Source: a virus
Taxonomy: Duplodnaviria > Heunggongvirae > Uroviricota > Caudoviricetes
Virus record (IMG/VR): IMGVR_UViG_2695420698_000002
Strand: one strand, 5' to 3'
Length of the DNA stretch: 7,700 bases
In this document: positions 1 through 7,700 of the stretch, piece by piece
How positions within the stretch are numbered: the stretch's first letter is position 1
How the letters are laid out: every line of letters begins with the position of its first letter
The notes under the pieces: generated by a model
What the model saw: only the letters and a program-made list of their open reading frames with translations
Told to the model about the DNA's origin: nothing
Databases searched by the model: none
Position numbers and translations under genes: made by a program

Positions 1-2126
1 AACGATACCGACGCCGGATCGCCCTGCTGCCCCCACGCATTTACTGCCCGGACTGTCAGCCTGTAGTTCCCCAGCGCCAGTTGTGTGAAGCGGTAAGTGG
101 TTTCCGTCGTCCGGGCCGTGCTGACCAGCCGCTCACTGCCGTCATCCGCTGTTACGGTCAGACGGAGCAGGAAGCTCACGCCCTTCACCACCTTCGGCGT
201 GTCCCAGCGCGCCAGCACCTGATATTCCCCGCTGTCTGCGGTGACTTCGGCAGTCAGGTGCTGCACCGCTGGCGGCGTGACACCATTCACCGTGCCGCTC
301 TGGTCGCCGTCAAAGTGCGCCCCGTTATCCACGATGGCTTCTTTTTCCGGCACATGCTGCACGGCGGTGATGGCATACGTGCCGTCGTCGTTCTCACGGA
401 TACTCACGCAGCGGAACAATCGCTGGTGCAGCGTCGGCAGCTTCAGCCCCCACACGCTGTATTCAGCAACACCGTCAGGAACACGGCTCACTTTTACCTT
501 CACGCCGTCGGTGACGGACTGGACCTCCACGCTGACCGGATTCCCCTGCCCGTCAACCAGGCTTATCAGCGTGGTGCCGGAGGATGGCAGCGTGATTTCA
601 CGGTCGAGCGTCAGCGTCCGGGTCTGGCTGTTCACCGCCAGCACGCGCCCGCCGGTGCGGATACCGGCATAGTCATCATCGCAGATTTCAATGACATCGC
701 CCGGTACATGACGAAGCCCTTCAGCACCCACGCTGAAATCCACGGTCTGCGTCTCCAGCAGTTCCGTTTTAATCAGCCACAGCCCGGCGCGGTGTGCCTG
801 CCCCCGGCTGGTACAGCCAAAGGCATCCATCTTCGTGACGTTACGACCGTAACGGACAATGGCCTGCGTATCCTCCACAAGCTCTGTCGCCGTCTCCCAG
901 CCGTTATCCGGGTCAATCCAGTTCACCTCAACGGCATTATGGCGGTCTTTCAGGGCGCTGAAACTGTAGCGGAACGGCGCGCCATCATCCGGCATCACCA
1001 CATTACTGCGGTTATAGGCCCACACCTTATCCGACTGTCGGTCCTGCACGAACGTCAGCGTCTGCCCGTTCCATACCGGCATACAGCGCATCGCCGAGCA
1101 GAAATCACTGAGCACATCCCACGCCTTGCGCTGTGTGGTCAGCCAGGCATTACAGGTGATGCGCGGCTCCGTGCTGCCAAAGCCGTCCGGCACCGACTGG
1201 TCACAGTACTGGCCGATGACATACAGCGCCCATTTATCCACATCTGCCGCACCAAGACGTTTCCCCATGCCATAGCGCGGATGGGTCAGCATATCCCACA
1301 GACACCAGGCCATGTTGTTGCTGTATGCCGGTTTTAACGTTCCGTCCCAGATACCGCTGTATTGCCGCGTCTGCGGATTATAGTTCGACGGCACCTGCAG
1401 AATGCGCCCGCGAAGATGATAATTACGGCTCACCTGCTGGCTGCCGAACTGCTCCGAATCCACCTGTACGCCGACCAGTGCCGTGTTCGGGTAGCACTGT
1501 TTCACATCGATGATTTCGGTGTATGACGACCAGAGCGTTTTGTTCTGCAGCTGGTCTGTGGTGCTGTCCGGTGTCATCCTGCGCATCCGGATATTAAACG
1601 GGCGCGGCGGCAGGTTATCCACCACCACCGAGGCCAGATACTGCGAGGTGGTTTTGCCCTTAATGGTGATGTCTTTTTCCGTCACCCAGCCACCGTTACG
1701 CTGTATCTGAACCAGCAGGCGAACTTCAGACGGATTCCTGTCTCCCTTTGAGGTGGTTTCCACCAGTGCCTGTACACCGAAGGTAAAACGCAGTCGGTCA
1801 ATGTTTGCCGACGTGATGGTCCGGGTGATCGGCGTGTCATATTTCACTTCCGTACCCAGCACCGTCTCGGAGCCGGAGGATTCAAATCCCTCCGGCGGTG
1901 ACTGCTCCTGCTCACCTGCCCGGAACACCACCGTGACGCCGGAGATGTTGGTATTCCCCTCACTGTCCAGCACCGGCGTACTGTTCAGCAGCACGCTTTT
2001 TAATCCATCCACCGGACCTTCAACCGGCCCTTCGCTGATGGCATCGATCACACTCAGCAGCTGCGTGGACTTCAGGTTGTCCTTCGCTTCGCGCGGGGTA
2101 TGCCCCTTACTGCTGCCTTTACCCAT
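1..2126 (-). CDS. J: Tail-tip host-specificity / central tail fibre protein (lambda gpJ-type), N-terminal ~708 codons; 3' end beyond window start
   Basis: Minus-strand ATG at 2126 (plus 'cat' 2124-2126) encodes MGKGSSKGHTPREAKDNLKSTQ. The ORF track lists no minus-strand ORF anywhere in 1-2186, consistent with this frame staying open to the window edge. My own translation of the reverse complement gives PAYSNNMAWCLWDMLTHPRYGMG (~1270-1340) and LTVRAVNAWGQQGDPASVSF (1-59), both matching lambda gpJ as I recall it. gpJ is 1132 aa, so the receptor-binding C-terminus is outside the window. Confidence 0.9.
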   Translation of the reverse strand, partial: MGKGSSKGHTPREAKDNLKSTQLLSVIDAISEGPVEGPVDGLKSVLLNSTPVLDSEGNTNISGVTVVFRAGEQEQSPPEGFESSGSETVLGTEVKYDTPITRTITSANIDRLRFTFGVQALVETTSKGDRNPSEVRLLVQIQRNGGWVTEKDITIKGKTTSQYLASVVVDNLPPRPFNIRMRRMTPDSTTDQLQNKTLWSSYTEIIDVKQCYPNTALVGVQVDSEQFGSQQVSRNYHLRGRILQVPSNYNPQTRQYSGIWDGTLKPAYSNNMAWCLWDMLTHPRYGMGKRLGAADVDKWALYVIGQYCDQSVPDGFGSTEPRITCNAWLTTQRKAWDVLSDFCSAMRCMPVWNGQTLTFVQDRQSDKVWAYNRSNVVMPDDGAPFRYSFSALKDRHNAVEVNWIDPDNGWETATELVEDTQAIVRYGRNVTKMDAFGCTSRGQAHRAGLWLIKTELLETQTVDFSVGAEGLRHVPGDVIEICDDDYAGIRTGGRVLAVNSQTRTLTLDREITLPSSGTTLISLVDGQGNPVSVEVQSVTDGVKVKVSRVPDGVAEYSVWGLKLPTLHQRLFRCVSIRENDDGTYAITAVQHVPEKEAIVDNGAHFDGDQSGTVNGVTPPAVQHLTAEVTADSGEYQVLARWDTPKVVKGVSFLLRLTVTADDGSERLVSTARTTETTYRFTQLALGNYRLTVRAVNAWGQQGDPASVS

Positions 2127-2147
2127 TCGTCATGCTCCATAAACGAT

Positions 2148-2168
2148 AAAACCGCCCGGAGGCGATTT
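2148..2168 (-). other. Imperfect hairpin in the I'-J intergenic spacer (copy 1)
   Basis: aaaaccgcc-cgga-ggcgattt: a 4-bp perfect GC core with flanking A/T pairs and one C.A mismatch. It sits in the ~60-nt gap between the I' stop (2187-2189) and the J start (2126). Confidence 0.3.
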
Positions 2169-2186
2169 CACATAAAACATTTTGCA

Positions 2187-2898
2187 TCAGCGACCAATCA
2201 CCACAACCTGACCACCGTCCCCTTCGTCTGCCGTGCTGATCTCCTGAGATACCACACGTGACCCCACGCGCATTTCACCATACAGAACAGGCATAACATT
2301 GCCCTGGGCAACCATGTTATCCAGTGAGGAGAAATAGGTGTTCTGCTTACCGTTATCCGTTGTCTGTGTGCGGGGAGTTCTGGCTTTCGGTGCCAGCATC
2401 TGAGCCACACCGCCGAGCACCATACTGGCACCGAGAGAAAACAGAATGCCGGTCATACCACCGGCACCAATGGCAGCCCCCCATGCTGCNNNNNNNNNNN
2501 NNNNNNNNNNNNNNNNNNNNNNNNNCTGCAAGGGTGGCTCCGGCGGTAAAGAATGATCCGGCAATGGCGGCTGCTCCCAGGACAATCTGGAATACACCAC
2601 CTGACTTGGCCCCGGCGACTCTGGGAACAATATGAATCACAGCGCCGTCAGGCAGAGCCTCATGTAACTGTGCCGTTAATCCGGACGTGCTAACATCCTG
2701 CCCGGCAATACGCACCTGATACCAGCCGTCGCTCAGCTTCTGACGAAACGCAGGGAGCTGTGTGGCCATCGCCCGGATGGCTTCGGCACCCGTTTTCACA
2801 CGAAGGTCGATGCGGCGGCCAAATCGTTGCAAATCCCCGTAAAGGCAGATGCGTGCCATGCCCGGTGACGCCAGAGGGAGTGTGTGCGTCGCTGCCAT
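2187..2898 (-). CDS. I: Tail-tip assembly protein I (lambda gpI-type, 223-aa allele), interrupted by a 36-nt N run
   Basis: Start at 2898 encodes MAATHTLPLASPGMARICLYGDLQRFGRRIDL; stop is TGA (plus 'tca' 2187-2189); C-terminus is ...ISTADEGDGGQVVVIGR. The frames either side of the N run differ by one, but the flanks overlap by 4 nt (ctgc). Removing the Ns and one ctgc gives a 672-nt ORF reading ...GATLAAWGAAIGAGG..., which is contiguous gpI. Confidence 0.8.
2490..2525. other. Run of 36 N (gap or masked bases) inside I'
   Basis: Directly visible; flanked by a duplicated ctgc. Confidence 0.99.
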
Positions 2899-3422
2899 TT
2901 GTCGGTATACCTCTCTCGTTTGCTCAGTTGTTCAGGAATATGGTGCAGCAGCTCGCCGTCACCACAGTAAATGGCGGCATGATTCGGCACCGATGAACCA
3001 AAACAGCACAGCAGCACATCGCCCGGCTGCGCCGCTGACAACGGCACCTGATACAGCCCTGTGGCCTCCAGATTATCCAGATAGAGATTCTGACCGTGAC
3101 GCCACCAGTCATCCTCACGATGAAAATCCGGCATCTCAATCCCCGCCAGATGGTAAGCATCCCGGAACAGCGTGTAACAGTCCGTCACCCCGTGCTCAAA
3201 GCGCCGCCCGGTAAGATGTGGCACACAGCGGAACTTGTGAATCGCCCCCCGGCAGACCAGCCACCACGGCAAATCACTCTGCACCTGCAGCCGCCGGTCG
3301 GCCTCACTCAGCCAGGGCAGACCACCGGGGTGGCTGTGGACCAGTGCCACAATCTCACCCTGCATCTCTGCCTGCAGCCAGTCTTCCGGCGACATACGGA
3401 AATACGCCTCCGGCTCACCGGA
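2796..3422 (-). pseudogene. K: Tail-tip assembly protein K (gpK-type, MPN/JAMM + NlpC/P60), C-terminal ~208 codons, fused in frame to a J N-terminal fragment
   Basis: Lower part of the 334-aa ORF 2796..3800. After the X it reads SGEPEAYFRMSPEDWL...HSHPGGLPWLSEAD...GVTDCYTLFRDAYHLAG...ASTFV, which is collinear with residues ~40-247 of the full K copy at 4400..5143. Its 3' end overlaps the I' start, as in the intact copy. Confidence 0.75.
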
Positions 3423-3423
3423 N
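3423..3423. other. Single ambiguous base (N) at the J-fragment / K-fragment junction
   Basis: 'ccggaNgaggtggtttcc': the left flank matches K (ccggagatatt at ~5030) and the right flank matches J (gaggtggtttcc at ~1750). Confidence 0.95.
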
Positions 3424-3800
3424 GAGGTGGTTTCCACCAGTGCCTGCACACCGAAGGTCAGGCGCAGACGGTCGATGTTTGCCGACGTGATGGTCCGGGT
3501 GATCGGCGTGTCATATTTCACTTCCGTACCCAGCACCGTCTCGGAGCCGGAGGATTCAAAACCCTCCGGCGGTGTCTGCTCCTGCTCACCTGCACGGAAC
3601 ACCACCGTAACACCGGAAAAGTTTGTCTTCCCCTCGCTGTCCAGGACCGGCGTACCGTTCAGCAGCACGCTTTTTAATCCATCCACCGGACCGTCAACCG
3701 GCCCTTCGCTGATGGCATCAATCACACTCAGCAACTGCGTGGATTTCAGGTTGTCCTTCGCTTCGCGCGGGGTATGCCCCTTACTGCTGCCTTTACCCAT
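3424..3800 (-). pseudogene. J: Host-specificity protein J, N-terminal ~126-codon fragment (second, diverged copy)
   Basis: ATG at 3800 encodes MGKGSSKGHTPREAKDNLKSTQLLSVIDAISEGP...RLRLTFGVQALVETT, then switches to K sequence at the N at 3423. It differs from the copy at 1750-2126 by several substitutions, seen in the paired antisense ORFs 1753..2142 and 3427..3816. Confidence 0.75.
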
Positions 3801-3822
3801 TCCTCACGCTCCATAAACGACA

Positions 3823-3842
3823 AAACCGCCCGCAGGCGGTTT
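3823..3842 (-). other. Perfect 8-bp hairpin in the I-J intergenic spacer (copy 2)
   Basis: aaaccgcc-cgca-ggcggttt. On the sense (minus) strand it is followed by TTTTGTCGTTT and lies ~20 nt upstream of the J-fragment ATG. Possible RNA structure or weak attenuator; function not established. Confidence 0.35.
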
Positions 3843-3860
3843 CACATAAAACATTTTGCA

Positions 3861-4502
3861 TCAGCGACCAATCACCACAACCTGACCACCATCCCCTTCG
3901 TCTGCCGTGCTGATCTCCTGAGAAACCACACGTGACCCCACGCGCATTTCACCGTACAGAACGGGCAGAACATTGCCCTGGGCAACCATGTTATCCAGTG
4001 ACGAGAAATACGTGTTCTGCTTACCGTTATCCGTTGTCTGTGTACGGGGAGTTCTGGCTTTCGGTGCCAGCATCTGTGCAACACCGCCAAGCGTCATACT
4101 GGCACCGAGAGAAAACAGCAGATTACTCGCCATAATTCCTACCCCCGGCATCCATATAGCAACCGCCATAACAGCCGCCCCCAGCACCGCCTGAAACACA
4201 CCGCCACTTTTAGCTCCCACCAGACGCGGTACTATGTGGATCACTGCACCATTTGCCAGCGGCTCATTAAGACGGGCAGACAATTCGGTTTCACCTGCAT
4301 CACGCCCGGCAATGCGCACCTGATACCAGCCGTCACTCAGTTTCTGACGAAACGCCGGGAGCTGTGTGGCCAGTGCCCGGATGGCTTCAGCCCCCGTTTT
4401 CACACGAAGGTCGATGCGGCGACCAAATCGTTGTAAATCCCCGTAAAGGCAGATGCGCGCCATGCCCGGTGACGCCAGAGGGAGTGTGTGCGTCGCTGCC
4501 AT
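3861..4502 (-). CDS. I: Tail-tip assembly protein I (gpI-type), 213-aa allele
   Basis: Complete ORF from MAATHTLPLASPGMARICLYGDLQRFGRRIDL to ...ISTADEGDGGQVVVIGR. It is 10 aa shorter than the I' allele, with the difference in the hydrophobic Gly/Ala-rich central segment. Confidence 0.9.
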   Translation of the reverse strand: MAATHTLPLASPGMARICLYGDLQRFGRRIDLRVKTGAEAIRALATQLPAFRQKLSDGWYQVRIAGRDAGETELSARLNEPLANGAVIHIVPRLVGAKSGGVFQAVLGAAVMAVAIWMPGVGIMASNLLFSLGASMTLGGVAQMLAPKARTPRTQTTDNGKQNTYFSSLDNMVAQGNVLPVLYGEMRVGSRVVSQEISTADEGDGGQVVVIGR

Positions 4503-5143
4503 TTGTCGGTGTACCTCTCTCGTTTGCTCAGTTGTTCAGGAATATGGTGCAGCAGCTCGCCGTCACCACAGTAAATGGCGGCATGATTCGGCACCGATGA
4601 ACCAAAACAGCACAGCAGCACATCGCCCGGCTGTGCCTCTGTCAGTGCGACACGGTAAAAACCCGTCACCTCCATATTGTCAAGATAGAGATTCTGACCG
4701 TTACGCCACCAGTCATCCCCGCGATGAAAATCCGGCATCTCAATCCCTGCCAGATGATAAGCATCCCGGAACAGCGTGTAACAGTCCGTCACCCCGTGCT
4801 CAAAGCGCCGCCCGGTGAGATGCGGCACACAGCGGAACTTGTGAATCGCCCCCCGGCAGACCAGCCACCACGGCAAATCACTCTGCACCTGCAGCCGCCG
4901 GTCGGCCTCACTCAGCCAGGGCAGACCACCGGGGTGGCTGTGGACCAGTGCCACAATCTCACCCTGCATCTCTGCCTGCAGCCAGTCTTCCGGCGACATA
5001 CGGAAATACGCCTCCGGCTCACCGGAGATATTCACGCAGGGGAAATATCTTTCCCCCTCCGGCGTTCTTACCACGAAGCCGCACGACTCCGCTGGAGCAC
5101 ATCGCCGGGCGTGCGCCAGAATCGCTGATTCTGTCTCTGTCAT
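4400..5143 (-). CDS. K: Tail-tip assembly protein K (gpK-type), 247-codon ORF with MPN/JAMM motif and NlpC/P60-like Cys/His region
   Basis: Starts MTQTESAILAHARRCAPAESCGFVV. JAMM signature H-x-H-x7-S-x2-D is present as HSHPGGLPWLSEAD (residues ~68-81). Cys/His-containing region GVTDCYTLFRDAYH...HAAIYCGDGELLHH follows. The ATG lies 5 nt downstream of the L' stop. The ORF overlaps the I start by ~103 nt in another frame. Confidence 0.9.
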   Translation of the reverse strand: MTETESAILAHARRCAPAESCGFVVRTPEGERYFPCVNISGEPEAYFRMSPEDWLQAEMQGEIVALVHSHPGGLPWLSEADRRLQVQSDLPWWLVCRGAIHKFRCVPHLTGRRFEHGVTDCYTLFRDAYHLAGIEMPDFHRGDDWWRNGQNLYLDNMEVTGFYRVALTEAQPGDVLLCCFGSSVPNHAAIYCGDGELLHHIPEQLSKRERYTDKWQRRTHSLWRHRAWRASAFTGIYNDLVAASTFV

Positions 5144-5148
5144 GGGAT

Positions 5149-5847
5149 TTACTGCGAAAGTTTGTTAATGGAAAGGAAGCCGCCAAAGTTGCCGACGTTA
5201 TTGCGAAACTTACAGCCACTCAGGCATTTGCTGCATTTATCCTTCGTGATGTCGGACGTTGGCTGGTCATATTCATCCGCGACCGCCGGACCGTGATAAC
5301 CGCACTCATCGCCGCGATAGGTCCAGGTGCAGGTGTTGGCCAGCATGATACGTCCCGGAAAAACAGCGCCATCTGTTTCCGTCGGCGTGGACAGTACAAA
5401 AGAGGCACTCACCGCGCTCAGTTCGCTGCACTGCTCAATGCGCCAGCGGCTGATCACCTCCTGCTCCGGATCGGCGTCACTGTTTCCGTTGACGAAGTTC
5501 ACCGCATCCAGAAAACGGGCGTAAACCTTACGCCGGACCACCGTTCCGCCGACCAGACTCTGTAGATCTTCCGCCATCCCGGTGACCATACCGTACAGGT
5601 TAGAAACCATCAGCGTGGGGCGCGTACTGGTGCCTTTGCCATTCAGTTCAAAACCACTCCCCTGAATGGGATACGGCTGATACTGTCGCCCCTGCCAGGT
5701 GACCGGCTCACCTTTTTCGTTCTGCTCATTACAGAAAAAATAACGTTCTCCACCGACCTCTGTCAGATCGATTTCCCAGAGCACCACGCTGGCCGACTGC
5801 TCCGCACGGGTGCATTCATTCAGTGTTTCCTGCCGGATATCCTGCAT
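5149..5847 (-). CDS. L: Tail-tip assembly protein L (lambda gpL-type), 232 aa
   Basis: MQDIRQETLNECTRAEQSASVVLWEIDLTEVGGERYFFCNEQNEKGEPVTWQGRQYQ...CSKCLSGC...FLSINKLSQ. Length and sequence match lambda gpL as I recall it. The C-terminal cysteine cluster is present. The start overlaps the M' stop (TGATG). Confidence 0.92.
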   Translation of the reverse strand: MQDIRQETLNECTRAEQSASVVLWEIDLTEVGGERYFFCNEQNEKGEPVTWQGRQYQPYPIQGSGFELNGKGTSTRPTLMVSNLYGMVTGMAEDLQSLVGGTVVRRKVYARFLDAVNFVNGNSDADPEQEVISRWRIEQCSELSAVSASFVLSTPTETDGAVFPGRIMLANTCTWTYRGDECGYHGPAVADEYDQPTSDITKDKCSKCLSGCKFRNNVGNFGGFLSINKLSQ

Positions 5848-6125
5848 CAGTTCACCACCTGTTCAAACTCTGCGCTGAACTCAACACGCAGCATACTGAC
5901 CCGCGACGACCATTTTGCGCAGGTCACCTTTATCTGCCGCCACTCATAAGGCGGCGTCCACAGAAAGGCTTTCCAGCCCCCGTGCTCTTCCAGAAACGAC
6001 TCCAGTACCATGGCCTCCTCACGGGGGACAGAAAGCGTCACGCTGTACGTTTTCAGGTTGGCATTCAGCCCGGCAGGCGCTCGCTGGGAATAGCCATCAC
6101 CAAAGCGCACCTTTCTTACAGAAGG
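5847..6125 (-). pseudogene. M: Tail-tip assembly protein M, diverged allele, C-terminal ~92 codons; 5' end replaced by N run and K sequence
   Basis: PSVRKVRFGDGYSQRAPAGLNANLKTYSVTLSVPREEAMVLESFLEEHGGWKAFLWTPPYEWRQIKVTCAKWSSRVSMLRVEFSAEFEQVVN aligns collinearly with residues ~18-109 of the M at 7261..7590 (shared GDGY, TYSV, FLExHGG, WTPPY, KW, FEQVV) but with many substitutions. Stop is TGA at 5847-5849. Confidence 0.7.
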
Positions 6126-6136
6126 NNNNNNNNNNN
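6126..6136. other. Run of 11 N at the K-fragment / M'-fragment junction
   Basis: Directly visible. The right flank (ccggcatctcaatccctgcc) is K sequence, identical to ~4733-4752; the left flank is M' sequence. Confidence 0.99.
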
Positions 6137-6548
6137 CCGGCATCTCAATCCCTGCCAGATGATAAGCATCCCGGAACAGCGTGTAACAGTCCGTCACCCC
6201 GTGCTCAAAGCGCCGCCCGGTGAGATGCGGCACACAGCGGAACTTGTGAATCGCCCCCCGGCAGACCAGCCACCACGGCAAATCACTCTGCACCTGCAGC
6301 CGCCGGTCAGCCTCACTCAGCCAGGGCAGACCACCGGGATGACTGTGGACCAGCGCCACAATCTCACCCTGCATTTGTGCCCGCAGCCAGTCCTCCGGAG
6401 CCATCCGGAACCGTTCCTCCGGCTCACCGGAGATATTCTCGCTGGGAAGATACCTGTCTCCCTCCGGCGTTCTTACCACGAAGCCACACGACTCCGCTGG
6501 CGCACATCGCCGGGCGTGCGCCAGAATCGCTGATTCTGTCTGTGTCAT
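6137..6548 (-). pseudogene. K: Tail-tip assembly protein K, N-terminal ~138 codons (diverged allele), truncated at the N run and fused in frame to the M' fragment
   Basis: ATG at 6548 (plus 'cat' 6546-6548), 4 nt after the L stop. Encodes MTQTESAILAHARRCAPAESCGFVVRTPEGDRYLPSENISGEPEERFRMAPEDWLRAQMQ...HSHPGGLPWLSEAD...HLAGIEMP and then runs into the Ns. It differs from the K at 4400..5143 at several residues. Confidence 0.75.
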
Positions 6549-6552
6549 GGAT

Positions 6553-7251
6553 TTACTGAGAAAGTTTATTGATGGAAAGGAAACCGCCGAAATTACCGGT
6601 ATTGTTGCGCAACTCACACCCGCGCATACACTTGCTGCATTTGTCCTTCCGGATATCCGTCGTTGGTTTGTCGAACTCGTCAGCCACTGCCCTGCCCGTG
6701 TAACCACACTCATCAGAACGGTAAGTCCACATACAGGTATTCGCCAGCATGATACGCCCCGGGAAAACCGCGCCATCCGTCTCCGTTGGTGTGGCCAGCA
6801 CAAAAGAGGCACTGACCGCGCTCAGTTCGCTGCACTGCTCGATGCGCCAGCGGCTGATCACCTCCTGTTCCGGATCGGCGTCGCTGTTTCCGTTGACGAA
6901 GTTCACCGCATCCAGAAAACGGGCGTAAACCTTACGCCTGACCACCGTTCCGCCGACCAGACTCTGCAGGTCTTCCGCCATCCCGGTGACCATTCCGTGC
7001 AGGTTAGAAACCGTCAGTGTCGGACGGGCAGCACTGCCCTTGCCGTTCAGTTCAAATCCCGTCCCCTGAATGGGGTATGCCTGATACTGCCGCCCCTGCC
7101 AGGTAACCGGCTCACCTTTTTCGTTCTGCTCATTACAGAAAAAATAACGTTCTCCACCGACCTCTGTCAGATCGATTTCCCAGAGCACCACCTGGGCTGA
7201 CTGAGTGAGGCGTGTCGTCTCATGATGTGTTTCCTGTGGAATATCCTGCAT
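6553..7251 (-). CDS. L: Tail-tip assembly protein L (gpL-type), 232 aa, diverged allele
   Basis: MQDIPQETHHETTRLTQSAQVVLWEIDLTEVGGERYFFCNEQNEKGEPVTWQGRQYQ...CSKCMRGC...FLSINKLSQ. Same length as L', with substitutions clustered at the N-terminus and around the cysteine region. Confidence 0.9.
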   Translation of the reverse strand: MQDIPQETHHETTRLTQSAQVVLWEIDLTEVGGERYFFCNEQNEKGEPVTWQGRQYQAYPIQGTGFELNGKGSAARPTLTVSNLHGMVTGMAEDLQSLVGGTVVRRKVYARFLDAVNFVNGNSDADPEQEVISRWRIEQCSELSAVSASFVLATPTETDGAVFPGRIMLANTCMWTYRSDECGYTGRAVADEFDKPTTDIRKDKCSKCMRGCELRNNTGNFGGFLSINKLSQ

Positions 7252-7260
7252 CAGAGCCTC

Positions 7261-7590
7261 CTATGCCACGACCTGTTCAAAATCTGCCGTTATGGTTACC
7301 CACAACGCCCCCACGCTTGCCGACCATTTACGACAAACCACCCTGATCGGCTTCCAGTCATAAGGTGGCGTCCACTGAAATGCGCGGACGCCACCGTGCC
7401 GTTCCAGAAAGGCTTTTAAAAATGGGTGTTCACCTTTACGAACACGTATCTTCACGCTGTAAGTCGACAACTGGTTATTCAGTCCCGCCGCACGACGCTG
7501 TTCATAACCATCGCCCAGCTTCACTGTCACCACTTTCGGCTCTGATACCACATTCATATCCGGGCGCACTTTCCAGTGAAACGTCTCCAT
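7261..7590 (-). CDS. M: Tail-tip assembly protein M (lambda gpM-type), 109 aa
   Basis: METFHWKVRPDMNVVSEPKVVTVKLGDGYEQRRAAGLNNQLSTYSVKIRVRKGEHPFLKAFLERHGGVRAFQWTPPYDWKPIRVVCRKWSASVGALWVTITADFEQVVA. Length matches lambda gpM. Position is between the H end and L. Confidence 0.9.
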   Translation of the reverse strand: METFHWKVRPDMNVVSEPKVVTVKLGDGYEQRRAAGLNNQLSTYSVKIRVRKGEHPFLKAFLERHGGVRAFQWTPPYDWKPIRVVCRKWSASVGALWVTITADFEQVVA

Positions 7591-7700
7591 TACCGGTATG
7601 CTCCACTTAACCGGCCACCATCACGGGCCTGCTGTTGCATAAAGTCCGCGGCCGCTTTTTTCCCGAGGTCATAAACCACCTTCAGGGCAGCCGGACCTAT
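7590..7700 (-). CDS. H: Tape-measure protein (gpH-type), last 36 codons plus stop; 5' end beyond window
   Basis: My translation of the only open minus-strand frame gives IGPAALKVVYDLGKKAAADFMQQQARDGGRLSGAYR, ending in a TAA that shares its last A with the M start (TAATG). The other two frames have stops within the first 20 nt. Assignment is by synteny (H precedes M in lambda); the peptide was not matched from memory. Confidence 0.6.
   Translation of the reverse strand: MGPAALKVVYDLGKKAAADFMQQQARDGGRLSGAYR

Follow-up and report, generated by a model that had tools for sequence, protein, structure and literature searches.

The 7,700-nt stretch of viral DNA analysed here (hereafter, the window) carries two versions of the lambdoid tail genes M and L. 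The M at 5847-6125, designated M', adjoins a lambda-type L, designated L', and the question raised by this locus is whether a strongly diverged M allele was brought by recombination beside L', so that a mosaic boundary lies exactly where the two genes meet. From comparisons with phage lambda, with related phages and with the prophages of complete chromosomes, we consider, with a probability of about 0.9, that the window is a scaffold made of contigs from two prophages, that M' is the ordinary but truncated M gene of one of them (P1), and that the step in divergence belongs to the comparison with the other one (P2).

Layout of the window and its two prophage parents

The window is the exact reverse complement of an entire draft record, CXCP01000192.1 of assembly GCA_001257415.1. 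It contains three runs of N, with lengths of 36 (2490-2525), 1 (3423) and 11 (6126-6136), and its real genes are located on the minus strand only. Long open reading frames on the plus strand, e.g., 81-1337, are antisense to J and other tail genes and were dismissed as being without support. An Rfam scan of both strands of the window gave no hits. The called gene products of CXCP01000192.1 were already present in the protein collection used for the look-ups, while a literature search for the accession gave no hits.

BLAST analysis against lambda detected three blocks in the window, which overlap in lambda coordinates and are placed end to end. Window positions 1-3422 correspond to lambda 17630-14250 (part of J, I and the 3' part of K), positions 3424-6125 to lambda 15881-13151 (the 5' part of J, I, K, L and the 3' part of M), and positions 6137-7700 to lambda 14543-12993 (the 5' part of K, L, M and the 3' end of H). 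By exact-protein look-up, the L and L' proteins were found together in complete chromosomes of the Shigella sonnei type. In CP104423.1, for example, they share one orientation and are separated by about 690 kb, with P1 around 1,304,000-1,309,000 and P2 around 1,991,000-1,996,000. The numbers of index blocks with L, L' and I' in the protein collection are 2,352, 5,306 and 363, respectively.

The prophage P1 (locus L013) is lambda-like and intact, with genes for the protease C, D, E, FI, FII, Z, U, V, G, T, H, M, L, K, I and J. In complete genomes, it is colinear with lambda 5429-18002 in a 12.6-kb block of 96.5% identity, and its head and tail genes have identities of about 96-98% to those of lambda. 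The order of the tail genes, i.e., tape-measure protein (TMP, 853 aa), M (109 aa), L (232 aa), K (247 aa), I and J, is the H-M-L-K-I-J order of lambda. P2 (locus L005), on the other hand, is a remnant with the order H'-M-L-K-I-J-lom, in which the tape-measure gene is cut by IS elements; in L005 and L006, an H remnant of 121-127 aa follows the IS genes and ends at the start of M. Between the last contig of the window (6137-7700) and L005 7552-9115, the identity is 99.94%.

The chromosome CP019689, which bears P2, is that of Shigella sonnei 75/02. When the middle and last contigs were compared with 5,426 complete E. coli genomes, the best full-length identity was only 96.4%, and the absence of a closer match among these genomes is consistent with an S. 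sonnei draft. The neighbouring WGS prefixes CXBN and CXBR are listed as drafts of S. sonnei, with an attribution to Holt et al. 2012. The isolate behind CXCP01000192.1 is most likely S. sonnei.

Each contig was assigned to a parent by means of the positions that distinguish P1 from P2 (informative sites). The first contig (1-3422) was P1-type at 305 of 307 sites, and the last one (6137-7700) was P2-type at 334 of 335. The middle contig was P1-type at all 254 sites over 6123-4904, and then P2-type over 4823-3447 (163/165). In the P2-type part, the I' sequence at 4310-4130 is less than 60% identical to P1. The sites against the assignment, which are 7153 in the last contig, 4568 and 4557 in the middle one and 1578-1572 in the first one, could be strain differences or micro-conversions. 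The features of the window with their parents are summarized in Table 1.

Table 1. Features of the 7,700-nt window, listed from the highest to the lowest position
Feature	Position	Strand	Remarks
H 3' end, P2	7590..7700	-	Tape-measure gene; IS-truncated remnant in complete genomes
M of P2, complete, 109 aa	7261..7590	-	mEp460/cdtI-type allele; PF05939, 133.3 bits, E=5.7e-39
M-L spacer, 9 nt, P2/mEp460 type	7252..7260	-	GCATAGGAGGCTCTGATG
L of P2, 232 aa	6553..7251	-	PF05100, 322.9 bits, E=8.3e-97
True mosaic joint, P2 coordinates	7191..7192	-	Equivalent to 5787/5788 in the P1 copy
K 5' fragment, P2	6137..6548	-	Stops at contig end within three-copy K repeat; reaches L005 9115
11-N scaffold gap	6126..6136	.	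Places P1 M fragment next to P2 K fragment; adjacency not biological
M', lambda-type M of P1, 3' 279 nt (92 codons + stop)	5847..6125	-	Cut at contig end
L' of P1, 232 aa	5149..5847	-	Lambda-type throughout; PF05100, 335.6 bits, E=1e-100
K', 5' part P1 and 3' part P2	4400..5143	-	Chimeric by mismatch positions against each parent
80 nt without differences between P1 and P2	4824..4903	.	Site of the P1-to-P2 switch
I', 213 aa, P2 allele	3861..4502	-	Exact protein match to the P2 I gene in CP023645 and CP019689; 100% to L005
J 5' fragment, P2 allele	3424..3800	-	Stops at contig end
Single-N scaffold joint	3423..3423	.	P2 J fragment fused in frame to P1 K fragment
Third contig, P1	1..3422	-	99.9-100% identical to L013 8822-12203
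K 3' fragment, P1	2796..3422	-	In third contig
I, P1	2187..2898	-	Interrupted by spurious 36-N gap, 2490-2525
J 5' 2,126 nt, P1	1..2126	-	In third contig

A parent switch within K and the joints of the scaffold

The K gene of the middle contig, designated K', differs from P2 K only at positions 4904 and higher (plus 4568 and 4557), while it differs from P1 K only at positions 4823 and lower. Its protein was found in only one contig of a collection covering 153 billion gene positions, and this contig is the record analysed here. A repeat within K (family D1) is present in three copies, at 3128-3427, 4732-5031 and 6137-6436, and the outer contigs end or begin exactly within it; in both of them, the sequence continues unrecombined (P1-P1 and P2-P2). 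On L013, the two flanks of the 36-N gap fall at 9715 and 9718; they overlap, and nothing is missing between them. Thus, identity to two parents, a switch inside a repeat, contig ends in that repeat and the absence of the junction product elsewhere, which are the signs by which an assembly chimera is recognized, were all observed. Judged by these signs, the P1-to-P2 switch of K', which is the sole sequence unique to the record, is almost certainly a chimera made during assembly.

In this explanation, three contigs from two resident lambdoid prophages would have been chained by N gaps into one small draft scaffold. Velvet, SSPACE and GapFiller are an example of a short-read draft pipeline (PMC5320598), and the present record may have come from a procedure of this kind. 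Chimeras induced by repeats in drafts have the same appearance as the window, with its N runs of 1, 11 and 36, its contig ends in a three-copy repeat, its overlapping gap flanks, a switch between paralogs within an identical stretch and a product unseen elsewhere. A 334-aa open reading frame at 2796-3800 is likewise the artefactual product of the single-N joint between J and K.

There is a small chance that the switch in K', and perhaps the order of the fragments, is real, as a third recombinant tail module or as gene conversion between co-resident prophages. P1 and P2 share 80 identical nucleotides at this site, and as many as about 300 nt with an identity of 95% or more, which is enough for RecA or Red. 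The region is also known to rearrange, as the P2 tail module is tandemly duplicated in S. sonnei 75/02 with the copies 9,417 nt apart, and isolated sites of the wrong parent are present. However, the K' protein is restricted to this record as described above, and the first and last contigs keep the P1-P1 and P2-P2 continuations while ending inside the very same repeat. The joints are N runs, one of them with overlapping flanks, and the scaffold contains no unique flanking DNA. In addition, about 690 kb separates the two loci, which are in direct orientation, and a reciprocal crossover between them would delete 690 kb. A third prophage represented by the middle contig was ruled out by the split of its informative sites between P1 and P2 together with the uniqueness of K'. 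If the switch in K' were real, it would directly capture the swapping of tail genes between an intact lambda-like prophage and a defective neighbour on the same chromosome.

M' and L' compared with lambda and its relatives

M' belongs to PF05939 (Phage_min_tail), with a score of 117.4 bits (cut-off, 39; E=4.7e-34), and it matches residues 18-109 of the PDB chain 8iyk_M, 'Tail tip protein M' (E=7.8e-59). The gene is incomplete. It has neither the first 17 codons nor a start codon, begins directly at the 11-N gap and spans positions 17-108 of the 108 positions of the Pfam model. The M gene of L013 is complete with 109 aa, and is identical to M' at all 279 nucleotides of the shared part. Because M is whole in complete chromosomes such as L013, the truncation of M' is an effect of the assembly. 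The place between H and L, which is characteristic of the gpM family, is occupied by M in L013, and the gap and K fragment that precede M' in the window are an artefact.

M' and lambda M are identical at 276 of 279 nucleotides (98.9%) and 90 of 92 amino acids, with two amino acid differences. In the comparison between M' and the other M of the window (7261-7590), only 163 of 279 nucleotides (58%) and 50 of 92 amino acids (54%) were identical. The sequence-only reading of this locus had called M' a strongly diverged allele, and this description is correct with respect to the second M but not with respect to lambda. The same reading described L' as lambda-like along its whole length and more so than the other L, and this was borne out, since L' is identical to lambda L at 682 of 699 nucleotides (97.6%) and 228 of 232 amino acids (four differences), as compared with 588 of 699 and 203 of 232 for the L of P2. 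L' and L are 84% identical to each other. The overlap of the M' stop with the L' start that it reported was also seen: TGA and ATG share one base (TGATG, common base 5847), exactly as in lambda.

The numbers of mismatches to lambda, 3 in 279 nt for M' and 17 in 699 nt for L', are not different (Fisher p=0.22). Over all 977 nt, M' plus L' is 98.0% identical to lambda and up to 98.9% identical to phage Turner, and the pair is colinear at a coverage of 80% or more in 125 phage records. The L' protein has exact matches in L013 and in thousands of assemblies. The junction lies deep inside the P1-derived part of its contig, where the informative sites from 6123 to 4904 are all P1-type, and is therefore authentic sequence. 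In the lambda M/L region (NC_001416 13100-14127; gpM, PDB 8iyk), the same TGATG overlap is present, and only the M' of this record is without the 17 codons. The M'/L' junction is the native lambda junction, at which the two genes are presumably translationally coupled.

These comparisons bear directly on the idea that a foreign, diverged M was recombined beside a lambda-type L within this prophage, with the joint at 5847. The idea draws on the low identity of M' to the other M, 58% in nucleotides and 54% in amino acids, next to 84% between L' and L. M' is, however, almost the lambda gene itself and is exactly the M of the intact prophage; M' and L' are uniform in their divergence from lambda, the two genes are found together in the 125 phage records, and the step between the two copies is located at 5788, not at 5847. 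The chance that this idea is correct is close to negligible.

Both L' and L exceed the gathering cut-off of 25 for PF05100 (Phage_tail_L). The cysteines at positions 39, 140, 173, 182, 205, 208 and 212 are common to L', L and lambda L, and all eight cysteine positions of lambda L are kept in L'. The C-terminal cysteines of gpL reportedly serve as ligands of an Fe-S cluster, and the residues kept in L' may have the same role.

By its sequence, the truly diverged, non-lambda M in the window is the gene at 7261-7590, which is of the mEp460/cdtI type, and not M'. The P2 M is identical to lambda M at 199 of 330 nucleotides and 59 of 109 amino acids, and to PhiR47_1 and mEp460 at 96-100% in 50-nt windows. 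The region from H to L, 6553-7700, is 93-94% identical to PhiR47_1, cdtI and mEp460. Between the M and L genes of P2, a TAG stop is followed by a GGAGG Shine-Dalgarno motif and then by the ATG of L, without any overlap of stop and start, as is also the case in mEp460. The P2 L is a mosaic of three parts. Codons 1-20 (7251-7192) are non-lambda, the middle part (7191 to about 6868) is near-identical to both lambda and mEp460, and a third allele, with about 76% identity to mEp460 and to lambda, makes up the 3' third (about 6820-6553). Accordingly, the P2 L has five mismatches to mEp460 over 7251-6868, and then 62 over about 260 nt. A donor for this 3' third was sought in 50,697 phage records, among which no match exceeded 80.3%.

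The divergence step between the two copies and its origin

When M'L' was compared with ML, the best single breakpoint was found after 5788, within L and 60 nt (20 codons) from its start. The maximum chi-square value was 85.4, and the permutation maximum was 14.5, with 0 of 500 permutations reaching the observed value. Recursive segmentation divided the pair into 6125-5788 with 59.5% identity, 5787-5339 with 91.5% and 5338-5149 with 72.1%; L itself is therefore patchy between the copies. In the first 60 nt of L and L', only 38 positions are identical, as in M, while 86 of the next 87 are identical. On the P2 side, the dense run of mismatches to lambda has its last member at 7192. The sequence-only reading placed an abrupt change of divergence at the M'/L' gene boundary, and this did not hold, as the step lies 60 nt inside L'. 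Whether divergence is uniform across M' and L' depends on the reference: against lambda it is, and against the second copy it is not (chi-square 85.4). Position 5847 is not a mosaic joint.

The synonymous divergence (dS) between the window copies was 1.68 for M, 1.99 for L codons 1-20, 0.055 for codons 21-50 and 0.19 for codons 86-145, and it was saturated for codons 170-232. In the comparison between lambda and mEp460, the dS values for M and for L codons 1-169 were identical to these, and sliding windows revealed the same jump in identity. Because dS steps along with identity, the pattern reflects the history of recombination and not protein constraint. Because lambda and mEp460 show the same joint, the event predates this genome and is an old feature at the level of lineages. 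The mosaic joint between the lambda type and the mEp460 type is real, and is located in a conserved patch at L codon 20/21. Gene conversion within this genome was considered for the near-identity of L' and L at 5787-5701 and was rejected, since lambda and mEp460 share this block at 98-100%.

A history without recombination, in which M evolves fast and L is held by stronger purifying selection, was also weighed. The dN value of 0.44 in M, against 0.03-0.13 in most of L, agrees with it, and the Pfam domain of L starts only at residue 29, so that constraint on the N-terminal part of L may be weaker. Constraint on the proteins does not account for the shift in dS of about 30-fold (from 1.7-2.0 to 0.055) at L codon 20/21, with saturation again in codons 170-232, nor for the single mismatch in an 87-nt run that immediately follows a 60-nt run at 63%. 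Furthermore, the prophages L021 and L026 pair a non-lambda M with a lambda-type 5' end of L, a combination that requires exchange. We give this history only a slim chance.

In L021 and L026, the non-lambda M continues until about 20 nt before its stop. After the switch, these prophages have the TGATG overlap, then about two thirds of an L gene of the lambda type, and finally the 3' allele of P2. At least three combinations of M and L are thus found in nature. One joint is located in M, at its conserved 3' end (TTTGAACAGGT, encoding FEQVV), and the other in the conserved patch of L codons 21-27 (GTGGTGCTCTGGGAAATCGA), and the 80-nt piece between the two joints has two forms, the lambda form with the overlap and the mEp460 form with the TAG stop, the 9-nt spacer and GGAGG. 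The location of the joints at short conserved patches, and not at gene borders, fits homologous or homeologous recombination. The sequence-only reading spoke of modular exchange at gene boundaries; mosaicism of the lambdoid kind does exist between the copies, as the dS step indicates, but its joint is intragenic.

The preferred course of events would be as follows. In M and the first 20 codons of L, the P1 and P2 lineages are saturated with synonymous differences, they are near-identical from codon 21, and an ancestral homologous or homeologous recombination with its end-point in the conserved patch GTGGTGCTCTGGGAAATCGA would have produced this state, probably by exchange of the Red/Rad52 type at short conserved patches. 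According to Martinsohn et al. (2008; PMC2327257), lambda Red promotes the recombination of diverged sequences. In lambdoid phages, mosaics have a median size of 404-494 bp with about 95-96% identity (De Paepe et al. 2014, PMC3945230), small fragments are swapped more often than whole modules, and traces of homology flank about one third of the mosaics (PMC3945230). No information specific to M and L is given in a paper on co-transfer among lambdoid phages (PMC9836094).

The present locus resembles the published mosaics in several respects. Short blocks of high identity (87-449 nt) stand in a background of about 60%, their sizes are comparable to the published median, their end-points lie in conserved patches, and a defective prophage (P2) takes part in the exchange. 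Intragenic joints are found for most mosaics, as here, and nothing distinctive is seen in this case. Among the relatives, mEp460, cdtI and PhiR47_1 (NC_019716, NC_009514 and PV340566), the P2 copy shares the 9-nt spacer and the joint at L codon 20/21, while the 3' third of L in mEp460 is unlike that of P2. The mosaicism described here is ordinary and already known, as the M alleles, the L types and the joint are present in the published genomes of lambda, mEp460, cdtI and PhiR47_1.

The biological importance of the locus is accordingly small, short intragenic mosaics being the documented norm in lambdoid phages. The window is also cautionary, since the alleles standing side by side, the truncated genes and the fused reading frames, such as K joined to M' across the 11-N gap and the 334-aa fusion of J and K across a single N, would be products of the assembly of a repeat tangle. 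What is mildly useful is that the M-L junction occurs in at least three natural combinations, which fits recombination at conserved patches in preference to gene borders.

Contig joints and the ORFs that cross them

The N joints between contigs of the record lie within reading frames, and the ORFs that span them (Table) are artefactual fusions. Fusion products of this kind were found among the record's own gene calls (L027 1153-1854 and 3901-4905), and such products are therefore present in the protein collection. The 36-N gap at 2490-2525 is located within the I gene of the contig from P1, the intact lambda-like prophage. Its flanks were mapped to 9715 and 9718 of the P1 locus L013, where they overlap by 4 nt, so that no sequence is missing there, and the gap is spurious. 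The long plus-strand ORFs were without independent support and were treated as spurious.

Table. ORFs and the L allele segment considered in this part
Feature	Position	Strand	Size	Remark
J-K fusion ORF	2796-3800	-	334 aa	begins as J (N-terminus) and ends as K (C-terminus), with the single-N joint (3423) between them
K-M' fusion ORF	5847-6548	-		K 5' fragment and M' linked in frame by the 11-N gap
Long plus-strand ORFs	81-1337 and others	+	up to 418 aa	on the strand opposite J, I, K and L; GC-rich coding DNA
3' third of P2 L	6553-6840	-		separate allele; about 76% identity to lambda and to mEp460, a non-lambda-type lambdoid phage

The K reading frame and isolated sites

The chimeric K gene K' (4400-5143, minus strand) has an open frame of 247 aa, which starts 5 nt past L and is called in many genomes, whereas the lambda annotation (14276-14875) and some other records give K as 199 aa. 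The 247-aa product gains a match to Prok-JAB (PF14464) ahead of NLPC_P60. The difference between the two lengths looks like an inconsistency of annotation, not biology.

At 7153, at 4568 and 4557, and at 1578-1572, isolated informative sites show the base of the other prophage inside otherwise pure tracts of P1 or of P2, the IS-truncated prophage remnant. L013 and L016, both of them P1 loci, contain the 4540-4590 stretch, as does L017; it was not found in any of the 13 non-P1 loci checked (11 covering P2, together with the prophage loci L021 and L026). Strain SNPs and micro gene conversion are possible causes of these isolated sites, as are errors in the consensus where repeats were collapsed.

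P2 alleles in other genomes

In the published complete genome of S. sonnei 75/02 (CP019689, 4623455-4649513), two P2 modules (L023 and L024) are arranged in tandem, 9,417 nt apart. Each module consists of an H remnant, M, L, K, I, J and lom with flanking IS. Its double occurrence may reflect a genuine duplication, or it may have arisen in assembly.

Among 50,697 phage records, no match above 80.3% was obtained for the 3' third of L from P2. This allele, which keeps all seven Cys positions common to the L proteins, is carried at near-100% identity by L021 and L026. An IpaH-like gene (LRR_TTSS and NEL) adjoins L021. Both loci (6328-7355 in each) represent a third natural M-L combination, in which M is of the non-lambda type until about 20 nt before its stop and is followed by a lambda-type TGATG junction, the lambda-type 5' two thirds of L, and then the P2-type 3' third.
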